A program made the translations under genes and the position numbers. Below the pieces are notes generated by a model. That model searched no databases and was not told the origin of the DNA. It saw only the letters and a list, made by a program, of their open reading frames with translations. A stretch of DNA of 31,327 bases from a virus. Lineage: Duplodnaviria; Caudoviricetes. This document shows, piece by piece, positions 1-29,196 of this stretch (its first letter is position 1; every line of letters begins with the position of its first letter). Location of the stretch: the IMG/VR virus record IMGVR_UViG_3300031787_000556, positions 1 through 31,327 of that record; one strand, written 5' to 3'.

Positions 1-3000
1 GGAGGTCGGCAAGGTTCCGCATCGTCTCGACGTAGCGGTCATACTCGTCGTCGGTCAGTTCACGCTTGAGTTCTTCCTTCAGACCCTTGATCTTTTCAGT
101 GGTTTTCTTGGTCTTGTTACCTTCGACGGCTTCCTCGTAGGTGATCTCCGCGCCGTCTTCGAGTTCCTTCTTGGAGAGTGTGCCGATGGCGAGGAGCCTC
201 TTGAGTACATCCTCGTCAACCTTCGTGTCACGCCCGGAACCGTCCAGACGTTCATCACCGAGGATGAGCAGAGGAGCGTTGCGGAGTTCCTTATCCAGCT
301 TGAACCGGGGGCTGGCAATGCGGCGGCTAATCACCAAGGCATAAGATACCACGAGGCGAGAGTTTCCCGTCAGTGCCAGCAGCTTGGCGAGACGTTCATT
401 ATACGTGTTGTACAATTTCGCCGCGTTCGTGCGCATGGCGTCCTTGAGATGCTCAGCGATGTTTGCCCCATGGTTGCGCAGAGCGTTGTAAGTACCCAGA
501 CGCAGGAACTTGCGCACGAACCTCTCGAACCTGTCGAGGTTATCGATCTTGAGGTCCCTGAGAGTGTTGGTCGCTTCCTCCATGCTGGCGGGCGGCGTAG
601 GGAGAAGGTCAAGCTGATTGCGCAGTGAATGCTGCGCAGAGTAGACCGAGTCTTGACTGAACCTACCCGTGCCGTTGTTGGTCATCACGGTCTGGAGGTT
701 GAGCGCGAAGGTGCTGGGCGTGAACATGGACGAACCATTGCGCACGGTGCTGCGGGCCTGAGACACGAGATAGCGGACGATGTCGTCCTCGAACTTCACA
801 CCCAGCTTGTTCAGTACATCCTTGATGGCATACCAGACACGGGCGAGGATGCTGCTGTCCAGCTTCTCAGCGAACTTCGCCATGTACTCTTCGACCGCCT
901 CGCGGCGGGCACCGAGCATGTCAACATCTTCGCTAGTAGTCGGACGAGCTTCTCTCTTTGTATCACCTCCAACTTTCTTCTTAACCATGTCCAATGTAGA
1001 GCGGAGATGGTCTTCAATCTCGATGTTCCTCTTTTGGTAGGCTTCCTCTACCAGCGAACTGAACTCTTTCAGTAGTGAAGATGCGTTACCTTCATTGTCT
1101 TCAAACCAATTCTGGATAATTAAATCCGCATCGTCTTGGTATTCAAGATCGGTAAGAAGTTTACTGAGTGCTCTGCTGCTACCTTCAACATCACCGTCTA
1201 GTGATCTGGCGTTGTCGAGGATGCTGTCCATCTTGGCGATGGCTTGTTTGTAGTCAGAACCCTTGATCGGAGAGAGTATCTCAAGAAAGAGGTCACCCAC
1301 CTTTCCGACACTGTCGGGGTTGTTGATATTACGCAGCTTCTCTTGAACTTCAGAGAATGCGCTAACAAACGTACCCACATCTAGCTTTGCTGGGATGCGC
1401 GGCATCTTGGGAACAGCAACAGCCCCGATAACAGAGCCTGCACCTTTCAGAAAACCGCGCCGAGACATAGGCGCAACCCCGGCAGGACGTAAGCCAAGAG
1501 CACCATCGACCGACTGACGCACACTGGGGTTATTATCATAGACGTAGTCCATGAGTGCATCGAACTGCTTCGCGGGCAGCAGAGCACGCATACCATAGTG
1601 ACCGATGGCCTCGTGAGCCAGCAGGAACCGCATGTGCTTCTCGGTCGGGATGCGGTCGGTGAAGACCAGCACCGTGTTGTCGAAGGCGTAGCCCGAAGCC
1701 GGGGCAGTGTCGAAATCTCCCTGCGGACGCGCTGCCACTGCACGTTGGTACAGTTCGGGATTGCGGCGCTGGAGGTCAGCTTGGTTCTTGTAGACGTAGA
1801 AGCGCGGAGCCTTGGCAAGACCACTGCGGAACTTGTCCACGATAGCCTTGGCCCGGATCGGGTTCACACCCTTGGCGGGGCGACCGTTCTCATCCACGGG
1901 GTTAGTGACGGCGTCGAACTGGGAGAGGCGATACCGCCCTTCATCGATGTCCTTGAGCGCCTGCTCAACACCGGCCCACCCTTGGGATGTCTTGTCCTTG
2001 TAAGTTTCAAGATACGCACGCGCAGTCCACTGCGCCTGATCAGAGATACCCTGCCCCTTGGCCCAGAAGATGAGGTTAGTAAAAGCGTTCCTGTACTCTT
2101 CCCTACGTTCGGGCGTATCCTTACCGGCCTTGGCTAGGCCCTTGATCTTATCTGTCTGCTTCCTGACTTGAGCAACGGCGGAATAAACCTCCTCCAACTC
2201 ACTGGCGGGAACCTTATTCTCATCGATGTTTTTCGACCCCTCCATGGCGTCTGCGGCAAGGTCAGCCTTGGCGTCATCCGATAGGTCCGCGTACTTGGCA
2301 TCTGCCAGACGGGCAGCTACCATTATCTGTTCCAGCGGGCTGAGTTCGGTGACAATGTACTCTTGCGCCTTGGCGCGTGCAGCGGGCGAGAGTTTCTCGT
2401 CGTTACCCATCCGCACAAGCTGAGCAAATGCAGTCGTGCGCTCATCCGCGTTGGCATTATTGGCTGCTATGATAGCGTCATCGACCTTCTTCAGGTCCTT
2501 CGCAGCTTTCTCAGCGGCCTTCTTCTCAGCCTTCAGTTCAGCGGGGGTTTTTGAGGGGGCGACCGCGACCGCCCCTTGGGCTTTTGGGGGTCGCGGTTTC
2601 CTGCCCGTTGGCTTCTTTTCCTCTAGCTTAGCGGCCCCACCAGCTTCTTCCCGTAGGGTTTCACTCCGGGCGGCAGGCCCTTGTTCTGCTTGCGCGGGTT
2701 CTTGGGCGGCGGTCTGCTGTCTTGCGCGGCCACGATTGCGCGGGCCTGCCGTTCCGCCTGCTCCGGGCTGCTCGGCCTGCTGTTCCCCAGTCTCCCTGTC
2801 TGCTGGTACGTCTGCAAGAGTCCTTGTATCCGCGCCTCCCGGTCCTGATCTGAAGTCATCAATGACCTCCTGCCTGATGGTGAACTCTTCACCGCCTGTA
2901 CCGAATGTGCGTGCGCGATCAGCAACCTTGAGCGTGTTGACCATGGTATCAGCAAACCGCTGTACCTTCTCTTTCTGCTCAAGCGTAAGCCTCTCGACCT

Positions 3001-5665
3001 TCAACAGCTTGGTCACCTTCCCCAGCTTCTTGAAGATATGCTTGGCGATGTCGCTCTCATTGAACTGCGTCTTGCCAGCAAGCAAAAGCTGGTTGAGGAA
3101 AGTACGGATACGCTGCGATGCCTTACCGACGTTGGGTGTAAGTTTAGGCGTAACACCAGTCGAAAGCGTTTCGACTTGCGCAGCAGTACCTGTGGGTATC
3201 ACATCTTCAGTGCCACGCTGGACAACTGTAACCTTACCAGTCGGCTCGCCCTTCTTACCCTTTGCTTTGCCGCGCTGAAGGCGCTGCAATGTGGCAGTAG
3301 GGGTTTCCGTTCCAGACCTAACGGGTGCGTAGCCAGTCACACCACCAAGCTGTTCCGGGGTGTACGTTGCCTGCATACCAGCACCCATAGGGGTCTGGGC
3401 AATCGGCTGGCGCTGCGGCCCTGCAACGAACTGCTGCGCCCGCCCACGGGCAAGCTCAGCCTGACGGTTGGCAACAATACGATCCGTAGCGACGCGGCGG
3501 CGGGCTTCGGTCGTGGTGGGAACACCACGCACCACATCAGCAATCGGAAGGGCAGGTGCCGTACCGGGTGCCACACCAGTGGGGATAGGCTGCGCAGGCG
3601 CAGCCTGACTGCCGAAAAATTGCTGCGCACCCTGCCGCTGTGCGGCCTGCTGCTGTACGCCCTGCTGCGCCTGCGCTGCCTGCTGCGCCTGTGCCAATGC
3701 AGCGGCTTGGAACTGTTCAAACGTACCGAAACCACCCGTCTGAGCGGGGGTCATGGTGGTGCCCATACTCATGGGACCACCCGTCACGGGGGGAACCGCA
3801 GGCGTGGGAGGAGCCACAGGAGACATCTGCAACGGCGGCGCACCGACAGTCATCGCACCCGGAGTTACAGTCGGAACAGGACCAGCCTGCCCCATAGCGC
3901 CGGGTACGGCACCTTCAGTACCGAAGTATGGGCCGGGGATCGTGCTGGGGATAGCGGGTGTAGGACCAACTTGGAACGTCTGGTCAGCAGCACCCGTCAG
4001 CGGGGCCTGCGTACCAGCAAAAGGCTGAAGACCAACGACAGGGTTGGTCATCTGCTGCACAGCGGCCTGCTCAGCCGCCTGCTCTTCCATGATACGGGTG
4101 TAGGGCTGCGGCGGGGCGAAGACCTTCTTATACTCAGTGTCACCGATCTGCTTCTTCAGATCGATAAGATACTGGGCATAGCCGGGATCGTCCTGAGATA
4201 CCGGCAGCAGGAGATTGGCTTCGGTCTTATTGTCAGCCAGCGAACCAGCGAACGCACCACCGGCACCGCCCATCACGCCACCCATTAGGGCACCGGCAGC
4301 GAAGGCGTTGATGATACGATTGGTCGCTTCAGCGGAGTTCAGGTCGAGGACAGGGTTAGCTGCGATCTGGAGGACTTCCTGCGTGCCTTCAGTTGCGCCT
4401 TCGATACCCATGCCAAGTGCGCCGTATCCGGCGATGCGGCCTGTGCGCCCCTTGGCGACACCCTTGAGGATGTCCATGGACTTGCGCTGGGTTTTGGCAA
4501 CGCCGACAACGTCACCCGCGAGTTCACTGAAGAGACGGCCAGCCAGCAGCAGTTCGGGGGCAGTGTCAAGAAGACCGCCAAGCGTACCGACCAGCAGAGA
4601 CACAGGGCGGTTGCCCTCGCCCCCGTCAGCCATGGTTTCGCCGTAGGCAGCACCCGTTTGCTGGAAGATATTTGAAGCAGTAGACGCTGCGATACCACCA
4701 CCGATCTGCCGCATACGGCGCTCAATGGCAGGGGCCTGCTTCATCACAGCCTGCGCACCAGCCGTCAGACCCTCGTTCAGCATCTCGTCAAAGGCACCGG
4801 GAGCAAGGCGCGTCTTGGCGGCATTCGCCGCCGCGTTGGTCATGCCAGCCGCAGAGAGCATGAGCTTCTTTTCGGCGGCGTCCAGTGCTTCGCCCTTCAA
4901 CTGCTTCTTGGCAGCTTCGAGCAGCGCCTTCTTGACCGCCGCCTTACCGAAGAATCCACCGATGGCACCAAGCACGGCACCAGCGGGGGCGGCAGGACCC
5001 GTAGCAGCACCACCAGCGACAGCACCAACACCGGCAGTGATGGCAGACTCGACCACGTTGGGGCCAAGGCGACCGATGGTCGCGGCCATCCAGTCAAGGA
5101 CGCCGTTCTCAGGCGTAGAGCCAATATCGGTGAAGTTGCGACTGTAAACCTGATTGGGCTGGAGGTCTGCTTCCTGATCTGCCAAGTACTGCCCGGTCTG
5201 CTCTGCACCCAGCCACTGAAGCCCGAGACCAGCCATCTGCTGCATCTCGTCCGTACCCATGCTGAAGTTCTTGCCCATCAAGGTCAGAAGACCGGGGTCA
5301 CGGATGCTCTGCACATACTGGCTGAAGCTGGTATCGTCCACCACTTGCCAGTTACCTTCAGGCAGCGGGGCTTCCTGCCCAGCGTACTTCGACATGACCG
5401 CAACGTCTGTGTCGTTGTTGGCGTCAACGACATGACCACCAATGAAGTACTTGTTCTCTTCGGGGCTGTAGGCGACACGGGCAGTACGCTGCGTGGGTTC
5501 TTCTTCCGGCTGCATAAACTGCTGGTTTTGCGTCCTCAGACCCGCGCGGATACCAGCAGCGTACTGGTCGATATCGCGCGAGGCCCTGTCGGCAATCGCC
5601 TGCGGAGTGTTCTGCCCCAAACCCTGAAGCATGGGGGAAGTTGTTCCGAGGAACCTGTCAGCCAT
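1..5665 (-). CDS. Giant virion/ejection (large polyvalent-type) protein, at least 1888 aa, 3'-truncated by the window edge; contains a zincin metallopeptidase-like motif
   Basis: Hand translation from ATG 5665 (MADRFLGTTSPMLQG...) stays open to base 1. The ORF track lists no minus-strand ORF in this frame, as expected if there is no in-window stop. It has Gly/Ala hydrophobic segments and an EGATEGTQE motif near the N-terminus, a Pro/Gln-rich middle, LLAHEAIGHYGMRALL (HExxGH at 1598-1615) and AVEEYMAKFAE (EEY at 884-892). It is the last gene of the ejection cluster. Confidence 0.9.
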   Translation of the reverse strand, partial: MADRFLGTTSPMLQGLGQNTPQAIADRASRDIDQYAAGIRAGLRTQNQQFMQPEEEPTQRTARVAYSPEENKYFIGGHVVDANNDTDVAVMSKYAGQEAPLPEGNWQVVDDTSFSQYVQSIRDPGLLTLMGKNFSMGTDEMQQMAGLGLQWLGAEQTGQYLADQEADLQPNQVYSRNFTDIGSTPENGVLDWMAATIGRLGPNVVESAITAGVGAVAGGAATGPAAPAGAVLGAIGGFFGKAAVKKALLEAAKKQLKGEALDAAEKKLMLSAAGMTNAAANAAKTRLAPGAFDEMLNEGLTAGAQAVMKQAPAIERRMRQIGGGIAASTASNIFQQTGAAYGETMADGGEGNRPVSLLVGTLGGLLDTAPELLLAGRLFSELAGDVVGVAKTQRKSMDILKGVAKGRTGRIAGYGALGMGIEGATEGTQEVLQIAANPVLDLNSAEATNRIINAFAAGALMGGVMGGAGGAFAGSLADNKTEANLLLPVSQDDPGYAQYLIDLKKQIGDTEYKKVFAPPQPYTRIMEEQAAEQAAVQQMTNPVVGLQPFAGTQAPLTGAADQTFQVGPTPAIPSTIPGPYFGTEGAVPGAMGQAGPVPTVTPGAMTVGAPPLQMSPVAPPTPAVPPVTGGPMSMGTTMTPAQTGGFGTFEQFQAAALAQAQQAAQAQQGVQQQAAQRQGAQQFFGSQAAPAQPIPTGVAPGTAPALPIADVVRGVPTTTEARRRVATDRIVANRQAELARGRAQQFVAGPQRQPIAQTPMGAGMQATYTPEQLGGVTGYAPVRSGTETPTATLQRLQRGKAKGKKGEPTGKVTVVQRGTEDVIPTGTAAQVETLSTGVTPKLTPNVGKASQRIRTFLNQLLLAGKTQFNESDIAKHIFKKLGKVTKLLKVERLTLEQKEKVQRFADTMVNTLKVADRARTFGTGGEEFTIRQEVIDDFRSGPGGADTRTLADVPADRETGEQQAEQPGAGGTAGPRNRGRARQQTAAQEPAQAEQGPAARSETLREEAGGAAKLEEKKPTGRKPRPPKAQGAVAVAPSKTPAELKAEKKAAEKAAKDLKKVDDAIIAANNANADERTTAFAQLVRMGNDEKLSPAARAKAQEYIVTELSPLEQIMVAARLADAKYADLSDDAKADLAADAMEGSKNIDENKVPASELEEVYSAVAQVRKQTDKIKGLAKAGKDTPERREEYRNAFTNLIFWAKGQGISDQAQWTARAYLETYKDKTSQGWAGVEQALKDIDEGRYRLSQFDAVTNPVDENGRPAKGVNPIRAKAIVDKFRSGLAKAPRFYVYKNQADLQRRNPELYQRAVAARPQGDFDTAPASGYAFDNTVLVFTDRIPTEKHMRFLLAHEAIGHYGMRALLPAKQFDALMDYVYDNNPSVRQSVDGALGLRPAGVAPMSRRGFLKGAGSVIGAVAVPKMPRIPAKLDVGTFVSAFSEVQEKLRNINNPDSVGKVGDLFLEILSPIKGSDYKQAIAKMDSILDNARSLDGDVEGSSRALSKLLTDLEYQDDADLIIQNWFEDNEGNASSLLKEFSSLVEEAYQKRNIEIEDHLRSTLDMVKKKVGGDTKREARPTTSEDVDMLGARREAVEEYMAKFAEKLDSSILARVWYAIKDVLNKLGVKFEDDIVRYLVSQARSTVRNGSSMFTPSTFALNLQTVMTNNGTGRFSQDSVYSAQHSLRNQLDLLPTPPASMEEATNTLRDLKIDNLDRFERFVRKFLRLGTYNALRNHGANIAEHLKDAMRTNAAKLYNTYNERLAKLLALTGNSRLVVSYALVISRRIASPRFKLDKELRNAPLLILGDERLDGSGRDTKVDEDVLKRLLAIGTLSKKELEDGAEITYEEAVEGNKTKKTTEKIKGLKEELKRELTDDEYDRYVETMRNLADL
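2623..2859 (-). CDS. Putative nested (+1 frame) 78-aa basic protein inside the giant ORF
   Basis: AGGAGGT (2871-2865) lies 5 nt upstream of ATG 2859, and the ORF MTSDQDREARIQGLLQTYQQTGRLGNSRPSSPEQAERQARAIV... ends at TAG 2623. Host-frame codons are unusually A-ending across this interval. Confidence 0.55.
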   Translation of the reverse strand: MTSDQDREARIQGLLQTYQQTGRLGNSRPSSPEQAERQARAIVAAQDSRPPPKNPRKQNKGLPPGVKPYGKKLVGPLS

Positions 5666-21726: not shown

Positions 21727-21960
21727 CTATCTGTACTTCGCTGTCTTTTTGGCAACCTTGTCTGGCTGACGCACAAACTGCTTGCCGCTCTTCATACCCT
21801 TACGCTTCGCTGCGGTCGTAGCCGCGTACTCTGCGGAGGATAATGCCTTAATGGCTGCTTCCGGTAAATATCTTTCTCCCGTCTTGGAGGACGGCTTACC
21901 GGACTTGGTGCGCCACTTCTGGGCGGTCCAGTCCTTGAGGGACTTCTGGGGGGCTTTCAC
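21727..21960 (-). CDS. Small basic protein, similar to the C-terminal half of DUF5872-like proteins
   Basis: GTG 21960 overlaps the upstream TGA. KAPQKSLKDWTAQKWRTKSGKPSSKTGERYLPEAAIKALS...GKQFV. Confidence 0.75.
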   Translation of the reverse strand: MKAPQKSLKDWTAQKWRTKSGKPSSKTGERYLPEAAIKALSSAEYAATTAAKRKGMKSGKQFVRQPDKVAKKTAKYR

Positions 21961-22136
21961 GACGTGTAGCCCCCGCCTGCCGCCTTGTACTTCTTCGCCA
22001 GAAGCTGGGCCTTGCGGGCCGACCACTGACCGGCCTTGGTGCCCTGCACCGCCGCACCCTTGATCTCGTTGAACAGGCGCTTGCGGAGGGCAGGCTTGGT
22101 GTAGTTCCCGGCCTCGTTGACCTTGGACTTGCTCAC
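21957..22136 (-). CDS. Small basic protein, similar to the N-terminal half of DUF5872-like proteins (not in the ORF track)
   Basis: GTG 22136 overlaps the upstream TGA. 59 aa: MSKSKVNEAGNYTKPALRKRLFNEIKGAAVQGTKAGQWSARKAQLLAKKYKAAGGGYTS*. Confidence 0.8.
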   Translation of the reverse strand: MSKSKVNEAGNYTKPALRKRLFNEIKGAAVQGTKAGQWSARKAQLLAKKYKAAGGGYTS

Positions 22137-22303
22137 CGCTTCTTGCTCCTACCGGCCTCGCTCAGCGCGATGGCAATGGCCTGCTTGCGGTTCTTGACCA
22201 CGGGTGCCTTCTTCGGCCCCTTCGGATCAGCGCCGCTGTGAAGTGTGCCCGCCTTGAACTCGCGCATCACCTTGGAAATCTTCTTCTGAGCCTTGGTTTT
22301 CAT
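22133..22303 (-). CDS. Small basic protein, DUF6496-like
   Basis: 56 aa: MKTKAQKKISKVMREFKAGTLHSG...VKNRKQAIAIALSEAG. TGATG overlap with the upstream gene. Confidence 0.8.
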   Translation of the reverse strand: MKTKAQKKISKVMREFKAGTLHSGADPKGPKKAPVVKNRKQAIAIALSEAGRSKKR

Positions 22304-22557
22304 CAGCAGTTCCACGCTCTCAGGGACTTGTTGATGCGGGAGTTCGGGTCGTTGGCGGTCTTGGCCGACGTGAGCTTCTTCTTCATGCCCTTCATCCGGG
22401 CGCAGAAGCTGTCACGGCGCGGCCCGCCTTCCGGCTGCGGTGCCTTAAGCCCCGGCTTGCCGGGGTTCGCAGCGTTGTAGGAGGCCCGCCCCTTGGCGTT
22501 CAGACCGCCCTTGGGGTTCTTACCTTCCTTGCGCTGCCATGCAGGTGTCTTCGCCAT
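22303..22557 (-). CDS. Small basic protein, DUF6321-like
   Basis: 84 aa from ATG 22557: MAKTPAWQRKEGKNPKGGLNAKGRASYN...RRDSFCARM...SRINKSLRAWNC. Confidence 0.8.
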   Translation of the reverse strand: MAKTPAWQRKEGKNPKGGLNAKGRASYNAANPGKPGLKAPQPEGGPRRDSFCARMKGMKKKLTSAKTANDPNSRINKSLRAWNC

Positions 22558-22558
22558 T

Positions 22559-22849
22559 CTACGCCTCGTTGAAAAAGACGGTGCATTTGCAATCTGTCGG
22601 AAGCTCGACGTAGATACCCTTGTCGAACAGGATACCCGGCTCAGGCATATCCGTGCCCTGAATGCTCTTACCGTAAACATAGTAGTGGTAGTAGGGTTCA
22701 CCCCCTACCGGAGCAGCATCCAGATCATAGAACTTCAACTCGGCATCACCCCCACCTGAGTGGAAGATCAGCACCTTGAGGAAGTAGGCCCGCGAGGTAG
22801 TCACAAGCCCCGTAGCCGAAAGCTGTACAGCCATGACGCCACGCTGCAT
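22559..22849 (-). CDS. Hypothetical small beta-sandwich virion protein
   Basis: 96 aa with an AGGAGG RBS and a C-terminal PEPGILFDKGIYV motif. Confidence 0.75.
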   Translation of the reverse strand: MQRGVMAVQLSATGLVTTSRAYFLKVLIFHSGGGDAELKFYDLDAAPVGGEPYYHYYVYGKSIQGTDMPEPGILFDKGIYVELPTDCKCTVFFNEA

Positions 22850-23415: not shown

Positions 23416-24324
23416 TTATGCCAGCGTGATGACGCCGTGGGCGAGAGCTTCCGGCTTCACGGTCTGGTAACCGTAAACCTGAAGGCCGCGCACGATGTTG
23501 CCGAAGGTAGACTCGGCACGGATCGTCTCCATCTCCGTCATCTGCGATGCGAAGGTGAAGCCCATCTTGTGGCCCGCGATGATGTCGAACTTGCCAGAGG
23601 CAACCGGCAGGTTGTGGCTCATGTAGACCGTGAAGCGGTCGATCATGCCGAGACGCCCGTTGCGCAGCACCGAGGTGCTGTCACCCGCGAGGGAGGCGTC
23701 CTTGAGATCGGACTTCTTGATCATGCCCGCCATCTTCGCCGGGATGATGATCCAGCGGTTGGACTCGGGCGCGTTGGCCTCATCCAGCACCGTGCCGAGG
23801 TCCACGATGTATTCGAGGACGTTGGTCTTGGTGATGGCGATGGGAGTGCCGGTGGTGCCGAGGTCAATGTTGTTCGAGATACGGCCAGCGGTCGCACCCT
23901 CGTTGTCAGCCGACACATCAGCCACGATAGCGGCCAGCACGCGCTGGTCGATCTTGATCTTCATACGCTCGGAAGCGTCCTTCGACCAAGTGTCCATCAG
24001 GTTGATGTCGGACTGGACCTTGTCCACGTCGTCTTCGATGCAGGCGAAGTACTCGCCCTTGTCGATGCTGAGCTGGATTTTCGGCTTGTCCGGGTTCTCG
24101 ACGGTGAGGGTCTGACCCTTCACATAGGAGCGGATCGTGATTTCCGGCGTGGTGCGGATGTTCACGGTGTCACCCATGCGGCGGATTTCGCCCTCGTAGT
24201 CCGTGTTGGCGATAGCCGACAGGACCGTTGCGTCATAGAAGTTCTGGATAAGCTTACCCGACCAGATTTCGGGGATGAAGTTGCCCGAGTAGTTCGGGCG
24301 ACCAGAGGCGACGGGGAAAGACAT
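23416..24324 (-). CDS. Major capsid protein (P22 coat-like, HK97 fold)
   Basis: NFIPEIWSGKL...NTDYEGEI..MGDTVNI...FGNIVRGLQVYG. AGGAG RBS, follows the scaffold gene. Confidence 0.9.
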   Translation of the reverse strand: MSFPVASGRPNYSGNFIPEIWSGKLIQNFYDATVLSAIANTDYEGEIRRMGDTVNIRTTPEITIRSYVKGQTLTVENPDKPKIQLSIDKGEYFACIEDDVDKVQSDINLMDTWSKDASERMKIKIDQRVLAAIVADVSADNEGATAGRISNNIDLGTTGTPIAITKTNVLEYIVDLGTVLDEANAPESNRWIIIPAKMAGMIKKSDLKDASLAGDSTSVLRNGRLGMIDRFTVYMSHNLPVASGKFDIIAGHKMGFTFASQMTEMETIRAESTFGNIVRGLQVYGYQTVKPEALAHGVITLA

Positions 24325-24339
24325 GGAAGTCTCCTAGAT

Positions 24340-25380
24340 TTAGCTTGCTTGCATGATGCGTCCATCCCGCTGTGCAGCGAAGATGTCGCGTTCGATACGG
24401 TCACGCTCCGTCTCACGGCCCCTGTACTTACCGGAGCGCACATCATTGAAGAACTTCCTGATGTCTTCCGGGGTATAGGTCTTCGCATTCGTGCCGCCCG
24501 TCGCGCTTCCTGCGCTGCGGGACCGGCCCGGTGCAATCTGCCGCTCCAACTCCGAAGCCTGCCGAGTAGGTTGAGCATTCGCTGCTGGCGCAAACTTGCC
24601 AGACGCCGCCGTGAAGGCGCTGAAGAACGCCGTGACACGGTTCACGTCGAGATCACGCTGGGCGATCTCAAGGTGTGTCTGCCGCGAAGTGTTTGTCAGC
24701 GGATCGATCTCCAACAGCCAAGACTGGAAGTCCGGGTCGTTGTTGATCTGCTGCCAGTTGGGTACGCGCTGGGCGAGGTTCGACCAGAACCGCTCTTCCG
24801 ACGTTGCAGCCTGCTGCTGTGCAACACGCTGAACCTGCGGAATGACCGATCCCGATACGCTCTGCGTGAGGTTGGCGATGACACCCTCAAGCTGGGCGAT
24901 CTTGCCCTGCAAGGAGCCGACTTCCTCACGAGTAACCTTGCGCATCATGTCAATCGACTCGCCATACTCGGCCACGTCGTCGTCAGTCACGAGCTTCTGC
25001 ACGGACTGCGGTGCTGCGGAAGCAGCGGGCGCGGCGGGAGTAGAGAGTGACGACAGAAGGTTCTCCAACTGCGCGACACGGGCCTGCAATTCTTTGTTTG
25101 CGCCCCGCAGTCGCGGTACTTCTGCGTTGAACTGACCCTGAAGCGTGCGCCAACGCTGGGCATACGTCTCAGAGTTCGGGTCTTCCTTGGCACCATGCTC
25201 AGTCGTGCCAGAGGATTGAACGGACCTCTCCGCATCGTCAGCCTGCGGGGCAGGAGCAGGATCGGAATTGGACTCGTCAGTGGGCGGATCGGCCACAACG
25301 GCCTTCGGCTCACCAGTCAGTTCCTTGATCTTGTCTTCCGCAGCTTCGATCTGCTTACGAATTTGTTCAGGCAATGCCAT
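24340..25380 (-). CDS. Capsid scaffolding protein
   Basis: 346 aa with an acidic/Pro-rich N-terminus, coiled coils and VPNWQQINNDPDFQSWL. Located between portal and capsid genes. Confidence 0.75.
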   Translation of the reverse strand: MALPEQIRKQIEAAEDKIKELTGEPKAVVADPPTDESNSDPAPAPQADDAERSVQSSGTTEHGAKEDPNSETYAQRWRTLQGQFNAEVPRLRGANKELQARVAQLENLLSSLSTPAAPAASAAPQSVQKLVTDDDVAEYGESIDMMRKVTREEVGSLQGKIAQLEGVIANLTQSVSGSVIPQVQRVAQQQAATSEERFWSNLAQRVPNWQQINNDPDFQSWLLEIDPLTNTSRQTHLEIAQRDLDVNRVTAFFSAFTAASGKFAPAANAQPTRQASELERQIAPGRSRSAGSATGGTNAKTYTPEDIRKFFNDVRSGKYRGRETERDRIERDIFAAQRDGRIMQAS

Positions 25381-25391
25381 CTAATACGCTC

Positions 25392-25640
25392 CTATCCGGT
25401 ATGCGTAGGGTTGGTCGGCGAGCGTGGCTGCTTTGCCGCCAAATCAGGGGAATTGGTAGCCAACTTTACGAGTTCGGCTAGAACTTGACAGCGCCCCTGC
25501 GACACTGCCGAGTTTTGGAAGGCGAAGGGAAGCTGTTCGAGTTCGTGGGCCTTCCACTCACTGAGAAAGGTCAGTACCTGCGGGTACTGCCTCACAATGA
25601 GGGCAAAAGCCTTCACAACCTCGTCAGTGGGACGGATCAT
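25392..25640 (-). CDS. Small post-portal hypothetical protein
   Basis: 82 aa with ATGA overlap to the portal stop and an SQGRCQVLAELVKL helix. Confidence 0.75.
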   Translation of the reverse strand: MIRPTDEVVKAFALIVRQYPQVLTFLSEWKAHELEQLPFAFQNSAVSQGRCQVLAELVKLATNSPDLAAKQPRSPTNPTHTG

Positions 25641-27685
25641 CCGGCCCCTCCCGACGCATTGGGTGAAACGACGTTGGCCTGCTGCCCGCCTTTCGGCGCT
25701 CCGTCAGGCTGTGTCGGAACTGGTTTGCCGCCGCCCTGCGGTGGCTGTCCCTTCGACGGGCGCTGTACCAGCGCCAGCGTCTCGCGGGACGGAATGATGT
25801 CCTCAGTGGGCATCTGAAGGCTCTTGGCGACCTCGCGCAGCAGCGCGGCGCGGCCATCAGGACCCATGATCTCCATGTCGGCGGGGTTCGCCGTGGCATT
25901 GAGGAACTCAATGCGGCGCACATTCATCGTTTCGCGGTTGGCGAGATTGATGGCACCGCGCGGCATGATCTGGAGATCACCCTTGATGCTCTCATCCTCG
26001 TCATAACGCATGTTGTAGACGTACTGACGCTCCACGATGGGCTTGATCACGTCGGAGTCGATGTGCATGACCACCTGACGGATGCCCTTACCGGCGCTTC
26101 CCATGAGCATGGAGAGGCCAGAGGAGGTGCGGCCCGCGCCTTGGACGTTCAAATCACCGTACAGGTAGGCCGGAATGCCGGAATGCTCGTCGGCTAGGCG
26201 TGAGAACCTCTCGTAGACGCCCATGAGCATCTGAGCATTTGCTTCAGGCTGCGTAAAACGCACCGCTGGTGCGCTCGAACCAGTCGGATCGTTCGTGACC
26301 TGCCAAATCTTCCATGGGTAGATTTGCGTGATGTCTTCATTGGCCGGAATACGCTCCAGATTGACCTCAACTTGGGGTCCAGACGAGATGCCCATGTTGT
26401 TGACAAGGGCACGCGCAGCCGCATTGCAGATATTTTGCAGGTCTTCGATGATTTCGGGGATGCCTTTACCCCAAAATGCGCCCGGACACTTGATGAACGA
26501 GGTCTTGGCGTAGGGCTTTTCGCCCAACGGGTCGTAGTTGAGGACCGCTTTCAGCACGAAATTGCCGCAGACCCACACATTTGCGTCGTATTCGAGCGCC
26601 GCATCGGGCACTTCGTCCTCCGACATGCCCCATTCGCGCAGCATCGCACCGGAAACCTTGCCCCAGAACTCCAGAGCGTCGAAAATCTGCGTCGGGCGCA
26701 TCTCCGTATGGAACTTGCGCTCCTCTTCTTCCTTGATCAACTCAATGTCTTGGTTGATCCACGAGCTTCCGTTGCCCTCTTCGAGCAGTTTGCGGATGGC
26801 CGCGTCGTCGTAACCGGGCATTCCGATGAGATCGGAGAGCATTGTGCGGGTCAGCGGGTGGTGCTGGAAGCAATACCCATCCTGAATGCGGGTGATCCCC
26901 GGCTCCGGGTAGAAGTAGAACGGATCGACGCGCTCATACTCAGGCGCGATCTTGTCCACCGGCACCGCCATGGTGCGCCCCGAGGCGTCCTTCTGCCAGC
27001 CCAGTGTGCGCTGGCGGCGCACGACGGGACCCTTGATGACAGCGGCGGGGTAGGTGACGAGGTCGGTGATGAAGTCGTTGAAGCTCTCGGCCCAGCCGCC
27101 CTCTGCGAACTGGTCGGAAATCTTGTGCTTCATCTTGTCGGCGCGGTTCTGCGCCGCCTGAAGCATCTTGAACCGGTACTCCTGCGACACCGCCTCCTTG
27201 GCCTCGGCCATCTCGGACGGCGTCATGGCGCGGAGTTCTTCCTGAAGCAGGCGGGCGACCATGTCAGCGAACGCCGCCTTGATCTCCTGTGTCTGTGTAG
27301 GTGACAGGTCGGGGATCGGCGTGGGCTGGATGTCCCACGGAGGTGTGCCTGTGTCGAGCAGGATGTCCCGCAGCCAGCTTTCGGCGGCGCGGCACTTCAC
27401 CTCGGTGATCATCATGTAGACTTCGGAGCCGCCCTGCTTCTGGATCGCATTGAGCTTCTCGGGTTCGTACTCACCGTTGCGCTGGCGCATGGCCCGCAGC
27501 ATGATGTCTTCGATTGGCTTCTTGGCGATCTTCGCCGCGTCCCAGCACTCGCGCAGATAATCCACGATGCCAAGCATGAGGGAACTGGACTGCCGTGCCT
27601 GAAGCTCACGGTCAATCTGTTCGCGTTCCTGCCGTGCAAGCTCGTCGTTCGAGACTACACGGAATATGCTCAACCCAGCAGCCAT
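25637..27685 (-). CDS. Portal protein
   Basis: 682 aa immediately after TerL. Motifs RVDPFYFYPEP, FWGKGIPEIIEDLQ..NAAARALVNN..SSGPQV and GRTSSGLSMLM. Confidence 0.88.
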   Translation of the reverse strand: MAAGLSIFRVVSNDELARQEREQIDRELQARQSSSLMLGIVDYLRECWDAAKIAKKPIEDIMLRAMRQRNGEYEPEKLNAIQKQGGSEVYMMITEVKCRAAESWLRDILLDTGTPPWDIQPTPIPDLSPTQTQEIKAAFADMVARLLQEELRAMTPSEMAEAKEAVSQEYRFKMLQAAQNRADKMKHKISDQFAEGGWAESFNDFITDLVTYPAAVIKGPVVRRQRTLGWQKDASGRTMAVPVDKIAPEYERVDPFYFYPEPGITRIQDGYCFQHHPLTRTMLSDLIGMPGYDDAAIRKLLEEGNGSSWINQDIELIKEEEERKFHTEMRPTQIFDALEFWGKVSGAMLREWGMSEDEVPDAALEYDANVWVCGNFVLKAVLNYDPLGEKPYAKTSFIKCPGAFWGKGIPEIIEDLQNICNAAARALVNNMGISSGPQVEVNLERIPANEDITQIYPWKIWQVTNDPTGSSAPAVRFTQPEANAQMLMGVYERFSRLADEHSGIPAYLYGDLNVQGAGRTSSGLSMLMGSAGKGIRQVVMHIDSDVIKPIVERQYVYNMRYDEDESIKGDLQIMPRGAINLANRETMNVRRIEFLNATANPADMEIMGPDGRAALLREVAKSLQMPTEDIIPSRETLALVQRPSKGQPPQGGGKPVPTQPDGAPKGGQQANVVSPNASGGAG

Positions 27686-27693
27686 GGTTTACA

Positions 27694-27722
27694 GTTGTAG
27701 AGGATTTGTGCTGTGGTTGCAA
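27694..27722 (-). promoter_or_regulatory. Putative sigma70-like promoter for the portal/head operon
   Basis: TTGCAA-N17-TACAAC ending 8 nt before the portal ATG, directly downstream of a terminator. Confidence 0.55.
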
Positions 27723-27727
27723 TACCC

Positions 27728-27761
27728 AAAAGAAAAAGGCCCTCGACGGTAGGCGAGGGCC
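27728..27761 (-). terminator. Intrinsic terminator after terL
   Basis: GGCCCTCG-N8-CGAGGGCC followed by TTTTTCTTTT. Confidence 0.85.
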
Positions 27762-27807
27762 AAGTCACAGGGGTTGGTCTCATGGGAGGAAACCGAGGTG
27801 GAAGCTA

Positions 27808-29196
27808 TCACGTCCAGCCTGCGGCGGCAAGCACCTTGACCTCGCGCCGCGCCTGAAGGGCCGCACCCTCACCCGCCGTGGCGATGTGCAGCATCAGGTA
27901 CTGCAAGGCTTCTGCAACGTGTGAGTGTTTGTTCTTATCGATATCGCTGTCGCCCTTGGGTTTGTAGCGATATCCGCCCATCATTGCAGCCTTAAGCTGT
28001 GTACATCTGGGGTCCACGAGGAAGGCCGGGTCGCCGTCCACCTGCCGCATGAGGTAGTCATCCACCGCGTTGATACGCGCGGAGATAGAATTTGTCCGCG
28101 CCGGGATGACCTTCAGCCCTTCGGCCTTGATGATGTCCACCGCCGACCTCTCGTCCGTCTGCGCCCGCTGGATGCCAGCGGGGTCTGTAACGACGAGAAT
28201 GGGCGACCCCGAAAACCGCTCGAAGAGCAGTGGCTTGAGGATTTGGCGCACGAACCGCTGGACCCCCATGTCGAAGCTGACCGCCTCGGCAAGGACGAGC
28301 GCCCGCCCGCGCGGGTCCTGCTGACCGATGACAGCAGCAGGCGTAAGGCCCAAGTCCATGCCCACCACAATGGGACGCACGCCATTGGCAATATGGCGAA
28401 GACACTCAGAGGCCATGTGATAATCAGTACGGAAGTACTTATACACAGGCATACCCGCCGAACTGAGGCCGTACTCACCGTCGATGTAAACCCGGATGTA
28501 CTCATCTGAGCGTCCTTGGGTGTCGTAGTAACCATCGGGGAGATTTTCGATGTTCTCGGCGTAGGGACTGCGGCCTGACGGCTGCTTGAACACAGCCCAG
28601 CCGTTGTCGTTGGGGCTGACGCCGTCCTTCGGGTCCAGCTTCTCCATCTGATAGTACCACCATGTGTCCATGGTGGGCGGGTTGGTGTCGCCCCACATCC
28701 CGTGCCACGTCGGCCCGCCGTCCTTCGCGGACGGGAAACGGCCAATACGCTTGGACATGGCGTCCACGATGTCAGGGTGGATGTCCCGGCACTCGTTGAA
28801 CCACGCGAAGGTCAGTTCGAGCGAGTTGAGGTTCGCCACATCGTCCGCGTCGTCCAGCGCACGGAACATGATCTCGCACTCGACGTTGCCGACCTTGAAG
28901 TAGTAGGTCTTCGTGGTGCGCATGTACTCGCCGCACACCCCCGGTGGGAACCAGTCGAGGAAGGTCTTGATGGTGGTATCTTGGAGTTGTCGTGCCGTCT
29001 CGCGGACGACCGCCGCGCGGGTCTTCCTGATACCTTGGGCGTTAGGCTTTTGCAGGCTGGCCCTGCGCACGATCTCAAAGGAACAGGTTACGCTCTTCCC
29101 CGAACCTACCGGTCCCATGAGCGTGCGCATCTTGGAGTTATCCTCCATGAAGAGCTTGCCGGTGGGCGGCGGCGTGTAGTTGATCTCAAGTCCCAT
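27808..29196 (-). CDS. terL: Terminase large subunit
   Basis: Walker A GPVGSGKS, Walker B-like FAWFNECRD, coupling motif DTNPP, and nuclease motifs GMDLG, DPAG and SHVAEALQY. Confidence 0.93.
   Translation of the reverse strand: MGLEINYTPPPTGKLFMEDNSKMRTLMGPVGSGKSVTCSFEIVRRASLQKPNAQGIRKTRAAVVRETARQLQDTTIKTFLDWFPPGVCGEYMRTTKTYYFKVGNVECEIMFRALDDADDVANLNSLELTFAWFNECRDIHPDIVDAMSKRIGRFPSAKDGGPTWHGMWGDTNPPTMDTWWYYQMEKLDPKDGVSPNDNGWAVFKQPSGRSPYAENIENLPDGYYDTQGRSDEYIRVYIDGEYGLSSAGMPVYKYFRTDYHMASECLRHIANGVRPIVVGMDLGLTPAAVIGQQDPRGRALVLAEAVSFDMGVQRFVRQILKPLLFERFSGSPILVVTDPAGIQRAQTDERSAVDIIKAEGLKVIPARTNSISARINAVDDYLMRQVDGDPAFLVDPRCTQLKAAMMGGYRYKPKGDSDIDKNKHSHVAEALQYLMLHIATAGEGAALQARREVKVLAAAGWT

Follow-up and report, generated by a model that had tools for sequence, protein, structure and literature searches.

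The window analysed here is the whole 31,327-nt stretch of the Caudoviricetes record IMGVR_UViG_3300031787_000556. Its minus strand encodes a virion module comprising terminase, portal, major capsid, adaptors, tail fibre, endolysin, an internal virion protein and several large genes, with a giant ORF at the end. Nested in a linker of the giant gene is a second, small gene; we refer to this site as the slot. The features are as follows.

2..5665, minus strand: giant gene, start at 5665, ORF running off the window; the last large gene, at the end of the virion module
1598..1615, minus strand: HEAIGH motif, in the conserved giant domain downstream of the slot
2621..2860, minus strand: host-frame linker over the same DNA as the nested gene, low hydrophobicity, giant residues about 936-1015
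2623..2859, minus strand: nested 78-codon gene, +1 to the giant frame, ATG at 2859, TAG ending at 2623
2626..2718, minus strand: Pro/Lys-rich tail, only in the window clade (5 distinct sequences plus P0001/P0002), conserved end LPPGVK.YGKKLV
2728..2829, minus strand: core of the family (residues 11-44), aligned with stand-alone MPLKK/KQAVAIA genes at 31.4 bits, against 7.9 for the best of 2000 shuffles
2865..2871, minus strand: Shine-Dalgarno sequence AGGAGGT, 5 nt before the nested ATG; the host frame reads QEV
22133..22303, minus strand: stand-alone DUF6496 gene, a distant paralogue of the nested gene, among small basic genes after the major capsid gene
23416..29196, minus strand: head module (major capsid 23416-24324; portal 25637-27685; terminase large subunit 27808-29196)

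The giant protein is 2,901 aa when complete, as seen in four viral contigs; these are 100% identical to the window over 10-11 kb and thus give no independent support. Its C-terminus matches phrog_11358. The conserved domain, in which HE..GH and EA.EE motifs are invariant, may be a zincin-like metallopeptidase. A library search with the HEAIGH-bearing domain was without match, and a search with the giant domain gave weak matches to DarB-like and DdrB-like giants. Like the polyvalent proteins described in the main text of PMC5512222, where the words 'overlap' and 'linker' are absent, the giant is encoded among virion genes and contains a conserved HE..GH domain; unlike them, it has no polyvalent domain in a Pfam search. 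We infer that it is an ejected internal protein of the polyvalent type. Within the HE..GH domain, positions 920-1486 (minus strand) encode an insertion of about 189 aa and 48% GC that is absent from 24 aligned homologues (L011 lies outside the alignment) and begins with a twin-arginine-like stretch scoring below the Pfam cut-off.

What the initial annotation had read from the nested start holds on the sequence: AGGAGGT-CATTG-ATG opens an ORF of 78 codons, offset by +1 from the giant frame. Its counts of codons ending in G/C (63 of 78 nested, 40 of 78 host) were reproduced, as was its estimate that about a third of the host codons end in A (26 of 78, vs a gene mean of 8.8 and a gene maximum of 28 at the same spot). 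The host linker, described there as disordered-looking, has 5 hydrophobic residues among the 79 overlapped. Another stretch of the gene reaches a +1 GC3 of 65/78, and we discarded GC3 as evidence for the nested gene because 63/78 lies within the gene background. ORF length was discarded likewise, with 13 stop-free +1 stretches of more than 60 codons in the giant gene. The ribosome-binding site (RBS), at -11.0 kcal/mol, is the strongest of 133 out-of-frame starts (ORFs of at least 40 codons in 12 long genes; next -6.5) and outscores all 15 regular gene starts tested. Both RBS and ATG lie partly within a predicted hairpin. No internal promoter or terminator was identified in a consensus scan of 2400-3400, and Rfam gave no match in the window. 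Two RNA sequencing runs mapped to the window leave 2537-3608 uncovered, a neutral result for transcription.

The nested product would have a mass of 8.6 kDa and a net charge of +8. AlphaFold2 predicts a helix (4-21), a loop, a second helix (32-47) and an unstructured Pro/Lys tail (mean pLDDT 78). Fold searches of viral and PDB libraries gave no match at E<=0.001 (best VIA Z 4.3). Kinship to Arc, the sole match in sequence searches of solved structures, was rejected as repeat-driven (E 0.066). No further nested gene was indicated by a position-1 excess in well-aligned stretches of 11 pairs, either in the window giant or in the clade of giants lacking a nested gene; two flags fell in saturated stretches.

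The nested peptide belongs to a family, here family A, whose profile was built from 63 stand-alone phage genes only (MPLKK…KQAVAIA type). By this profile it is the best of 780 six-frame segments of the window, with an E-value of 1.8e-8, and the second-best match is the DUF6496 gene at 22133-22303. The initial annotation had noted a loose echo between the nested peptide and the protein of that gene, and this proves to be real homology: the gene is DUF6496 and aligns to the family profile at hhalign 96.5%. For the window protein the DUF6496 link is distant, via the profile (96.5%) and atlas leads at 0.84. It has no match to Pfam DUF6496 (PF20106) at the curated cut-off of 24 bits, and no direct match in Pfam or PHROG, including phrog_2423. 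Nested relatives L015, L030, L033, L035 and L039 do match phrog_2423 (E 3e-10 to 3e-6), and DUF6496 is touched by 20 of 81 family members (best E 2e-6). With 8,000 protein clusters scored, at least 6,847 are recovered by this profile. Relative to phrog_2423/DUF6496 proteins, the window protein forms a divergent branch, its N-terminus altered and a Pro/Lys tail added; MTSD stands in place of the MPLK N-terminus, and the sister copy L011 starts MPLT.

A search for more members of the window clade yielded nothing new from viral contigs, one identical copy from the portion of the metagenomes scanned and one short contig from bacterial genomes. Window positions 2630-2677 and L005:8144-8191 share 48 identical bases at the 3' end of the nested gene, although only about half of the residues agree between the two proteins. 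In P0001, an N-half of the short type is fused to a C-half of the window type. The nested gene itself thus has a mosaic look. Longer homologues fuse the A module to DUF6496 or DUF6321, other small head-module domains. In P0126, P0172, P0186, P0189 and P0197 the A module forms the N-terminus of a longer protein and is followed by Glu motifs resembling, by eye, the L/I-X-E site of the T4 prohead protease. In the window, three consecutive small, very basic genes follow the capsid gene (21727-22701): DUF6321, DUF6496 and phrog_14910, with net charges of +25, +14 and +16 when translated from the longest ORFs. ChaB, a candidate relative, was rejected, as it is matched by 0 of 81 family members.

A second small family, B, has members that start MPFKS and a predicted model with two short helices. 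No kinship of A and B is detectable by hhalign (16%), and a view of the window clade as a chimaera of an A head and a B tail was also rejected (hhalign 1.9%).

Giant homologues were fetched by the conserved domain downstream of the ORF (37 loci, of which 3 identical copies were dropped). Among the remaining 34, a +1 gene occupies the linker in 16 (10 of family A, 6 of family B), 16, including several near duplicates, have none, and 2 are cut too early. In the 16 carriers the nested gene lies 200-570 codons upstream of the conserved domain. In L032, which holds B, and L033, which holds A, the giant gene is near-identical on both sides of the nested gene, before its start codon and after its stop. 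In a tree of the conserved domain (38 rows), giants without a nested gene, 11 members in all, form one clade (99/92) inside the nested-gene carriers. The tree requires one loss and 8 A/B changes, a count of changes that open forks and mosaicism make an upper figure. A single A-bearing giant clade is rejected (p-AU 1e-36), in a test that came after inspection of a related tree. At the level of sequence comparison, trees and alignments show the two small families exchanging within the slot, with one loss.

The view that a real second gene sits in a linker serving as a coding slot therefore fits well, since homologues keep the start, the RBS and the open frame while the occupants swap. Retention of the linker with the start gone, the pattern named beforehand as fatal to this view, is absent from the 5 window-clade sequences, and the clade without a nested gene has a different linker. 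A loose first look at the rest of the genomes, some records of which are incomplete, found no A match in 4 nested-B genomes and no B match in 5 nested-A genomes; 5 genomes that lack a nested gene yielded a single weak match of A type and none to B. At L192:1175-6174, the slot of a full-length giant homologue is empty and a B gene starts directly at the giant's stop, which represents a natural state without nesting; at L177 and L187 a B gene also lies right after a giant.

Nesting extends beyond this giant family. In scans biased towards nested queries and covering the best 80 loci each, family A gave 72 stand-alone and 7 nested genes (79 classified), and family B gave 41 stand-alone genes, 37 inside giants (one of them cut by the contig) and 2 within read-through ORFs of about 400 codons. 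None of the 159 classified loci is nested in the other same-strand frame. Earlier loci included, the distinct read-through cases number 55 (17 of A, 38 of B), and their hosts form three main BLAST clusters (24, 18 and 8), a pair and three singles. Host clusters 1 and 3, both with phrog_11358, may be distantly related. Distant hosts of nested copies carry LPD38, ART-PolyVal or MutS-I. At L189:3653-4801 and L197, B genes lie within host ORFs of about 400 codons that start 43-58 codons upstream, and at L196:1247-6462 a giant that has RNA polymerase beta-like matches is followed directly by a fusion gene containing the B module. Positions 450-605 of phrog_32588 (residues 443-598 of the L158 giant) cover what the host frame reads across a nested B gene, and the hidden gene is therefore probably present in the other members of this PHROG as well. 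No nested copy was seen in a cultured phage: the window peptide and one linker query were without match, and four small-gene queries matched only separate small genes, in 5 records. The Y3 giant has no A or B match.

Substitution patterns in the overlap follow the nested frame. Across 13 disjoint pairs, whose overlaps were aligned with the nested protein as guide, host codon positions 1/2/3 show 204/120/92 changes in the overlap vs 2718/2178/4373 downstream, position 3 being the lowest in the overlap and the highest downstream. Nested identity exceeds host identity in 23 of 23 pairs, and host-guided sliding windows in 3 close pairs show the same inversion at the nested gene only. Among stand-alone copies, just 1 of 63 for A and 3 of 37 for B have an open host-type frame, which indicates that the host frame is also constrained in nested ones. 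The substitution patterns show purifying selection on the nested frame for the family and, more weakly, suggest it for the divergent copy of the window. Starts in the 55 read-through cases are ATG (45) or GTG (10), with a mean RBS energy of -5.2 vs -1.9 kcal/mol in controls, a comparison that is partly circular because starts were searched near the expected position. Proline is second in 54 of 55, the window copy, with its MPL start lost, being the sole exception. The embedded gene is, with high probability, real. We consider it very likely that nested genes across the family are translated independently, and quite likely that the window copy is too.

Two unrelated families at one site, together with stand-alone copies that show no relic of the linker, favour embedding of an existing gene, which is the probable origin as far as sequences can tell. 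The term 'overprinted' used in the initial annotation is less apt in its de novo sense, since the protein belongs to a very large family that is mostly stand-alone (72 of the 79 loci classified among the best 80 for A, and the at least 6,847 clusters above). Homologues outside the overlap, which a gene born de novo would lack, are present. It is unlikely that the family was instead born by overprinting in giant linkers, with the stand-alone copies as escapees, a scenario compatible with any function. It would account for the position of nested A copies outside the main stand-alone clade, with only 2 state changes, for a nested gene being ancestral in this giant family, and for the resemblance of L192 and L177 to relocated nested copies. 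However, it would require two folded families without kinship to have originated at the same site, and the stand-alone copies, present in many phage types, contain a mean of 5.5 stops in the host-type frame for A and 3.7 for B. The small-gene trees cannot order embedding and escape, since neither for A (p 0.23) nor for B (p 0.22) do they reject a single nested clade.

The gene neighbourhood of stand-alone copies bears on function. The nearest upstream ORF (>=100 aa) is the portal in 48 of 68 distinct stand-alone A copies (38/73 cluster representatives scanned), and others are preceded by a head protease, capsid or adaptor gene. An A or B gene lies between the portal and capsid genes in DSL-LC04 and 023Pt_psg01, and the small gene of S-CBS2 is located after the capsid gene. 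Stand-alone B neighbours are mixed (tail fibre, terminase, portal, ligase), and the B copy of P-RSP2 lies among unannotated genes, so no head context can be read there. Net charges of the small proteins range from +7 to +14. The predominance of the portal gene upstream of A copies makes an accessory role in the head interior likely, and we lean, on neighbourhood, charge and the analogy with T4 internal proteins, towards a basic accessory protein inside the head. T4 packs small basic internal proteins (IPI-III), non-essential or semi-essential, in its head and has the core proteins gp67 and gp68, as outlined in part of PMC9026906. These internal and prohead-core proteins, all small and located inside the head, are a working analogy; the head placement of the present family is a proposal, and no sequence or fold similarity to them was found.

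We propose that a complete gene of an old family sits in the +1 frame of the giant's linker and would be translated from its own RBS on the giant's late mRNA. The product would be an accessory head-interior protein contacting DNA or the prohead core, and for ribosomes translating the host frame this DNA would merely encode a spacer. Taken whole, this account has a little better than an even chance. As the linker must only remain stop-free and hydrophilic, the slot would accept any small gene with a stop-free host-frame shadow. With two such cleared genes available, recombination in shared flanks could swap them. More broadly, and tentatively, the giant ejected-protein genes of many aquatic phages might hold a standing gene-within-gene cargo slot, a linker expressed in a second frame from an RBS of its own, whose unrelated small basic occupants are interchangeable and help load or release the giant with the genome, forming a separate recombining pool that moves in and out unseen by annotation; we regard this extension as possible but doubtful.

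Close to the initial suggestion, the nested protein could be a dedicated partner of the giant (loader, chaperone or inhibitor), with nesting locking the pair together. The site is fixed in giants of at least three BLAST-unlinked clusters. The B genes directly after giants at L192 (where the slot is empty), L177 and L187 also suit a partner, and those of L192 and L177 group with nested copies (SH-aLRT 91 and 85). Yet A and B, unrelated as they are, substitute for one another in giants whose conserved domains hardly differ, the 11-member clade has neither, with no B and one weak A-type match in the 5 genomes checked, and most stand-alone A copies lie beside the portal rather than a giant. Two unrelated occupants and a giant clade without either argue against an obligate specific partner, and we hold this reading to be unlikely.

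A protein that is made but stays in the cytoplasm, binding DNA, RNA or ribosomes and forming no part of the virion, would suit the positive charge, the accessory distribution and the failure to find structural homologues. The clustering of stand-alone copies with portal, protease and capsid genes and the fusions to the head-module domains DUF6496 and DUF6321 render it rather improbable.

Decay of the window copy into a relic that is no longer useful is suggested by its long branch, the lost MPL start and a flat substitution pattern vs L011 (23/21/21 when nested-guided, Fisher p 0.011 vs control; 20/19/27 when host-guided). It is highly improbable given the strongest RBS measured in the window, an intact core and an overlap that is 72% DNA-identical to L011, against 47% and 61% in the flanking linker; moreover, the five diverged members of the window clade all keep the nested frame open, with indels of whole codons. 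Entry into the +1 frame by programmed frameshift, giving a truncated giant with a basic tail, can be dismissed almost entirely: before the window ATG the +1 frame does run for 47 codons free of stops, but a +1 stop within 10 codons upstream of the start in 35 of the 55 cases argues against frameshifting, as do the RBS enrichment at nested starts and nested N-termini that match those of stand-alone genes.

The nested head-protein gene proposed here can be set beside two known systems. In lambda, Rz1 lies inside Rz as a whole gene in the +1 frame, its functional part over a mutationally silent host linker, and the two are subunits of one required complex, according to the sections of PMC5295617 that treat the pair. 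Our nested gene is like Rz1 in lying wholly within the host ORF, in the +1 frame and with its own start signals. It is unlike Rz1, as presented there, in having a 2,900-codon host and in being dispensable in one clade, from a mostly stand-alone family and exchanged for an unrelated gene. Nor does it resemble an embedded spanin: the product has no cysteine and no hydrophobic signal, and the host is a giant non-lysis gene. The ShiLan domain is an HNH endonuclease lying out of frame in a phage methylase, a proposed homing nuclease whose RBS is given as not detectable in the part of PMC11855218 devoted to it. Both cases involve an existing gene out of frame, a host that reads through stop-free and a patchy distribution; as far as that account goes, the slot differs in its strong RBS, its two interchangeable occupants and the lack of a nuclease match. 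Pfam and PHROG gave no HNH or other nuclease domain in the nested product, and the model is of two helices in 78 aa. An exchangeable, dispensable occupant distinguishes the slot from both Rz1 and ShiLan as these sources depict them. Searches of the open-access literature found no description of families A and B or of such a slot.

Embedded +1 genes are known from few fixed pairs, whereas the one described here is an exchangeable accessory: A, B or nothing at one site, in several giant-gene lineages. It follows that some low-complexity linkers in giant phage proteins may be the shadows of missed genes. The two very large microprotein families have a wider distribution than annotation would indicate, and they offer a natural series for testing gene entry into and exit from other genes. 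They also point to cultured phages in which the function of the microproteins is testable. The B genes at L207:5001-5111 (S-CBS2), L208:4001-4120 (P-RSP2) and L209:3001-3102 (C75C1) are unannotated in the GenBank records.
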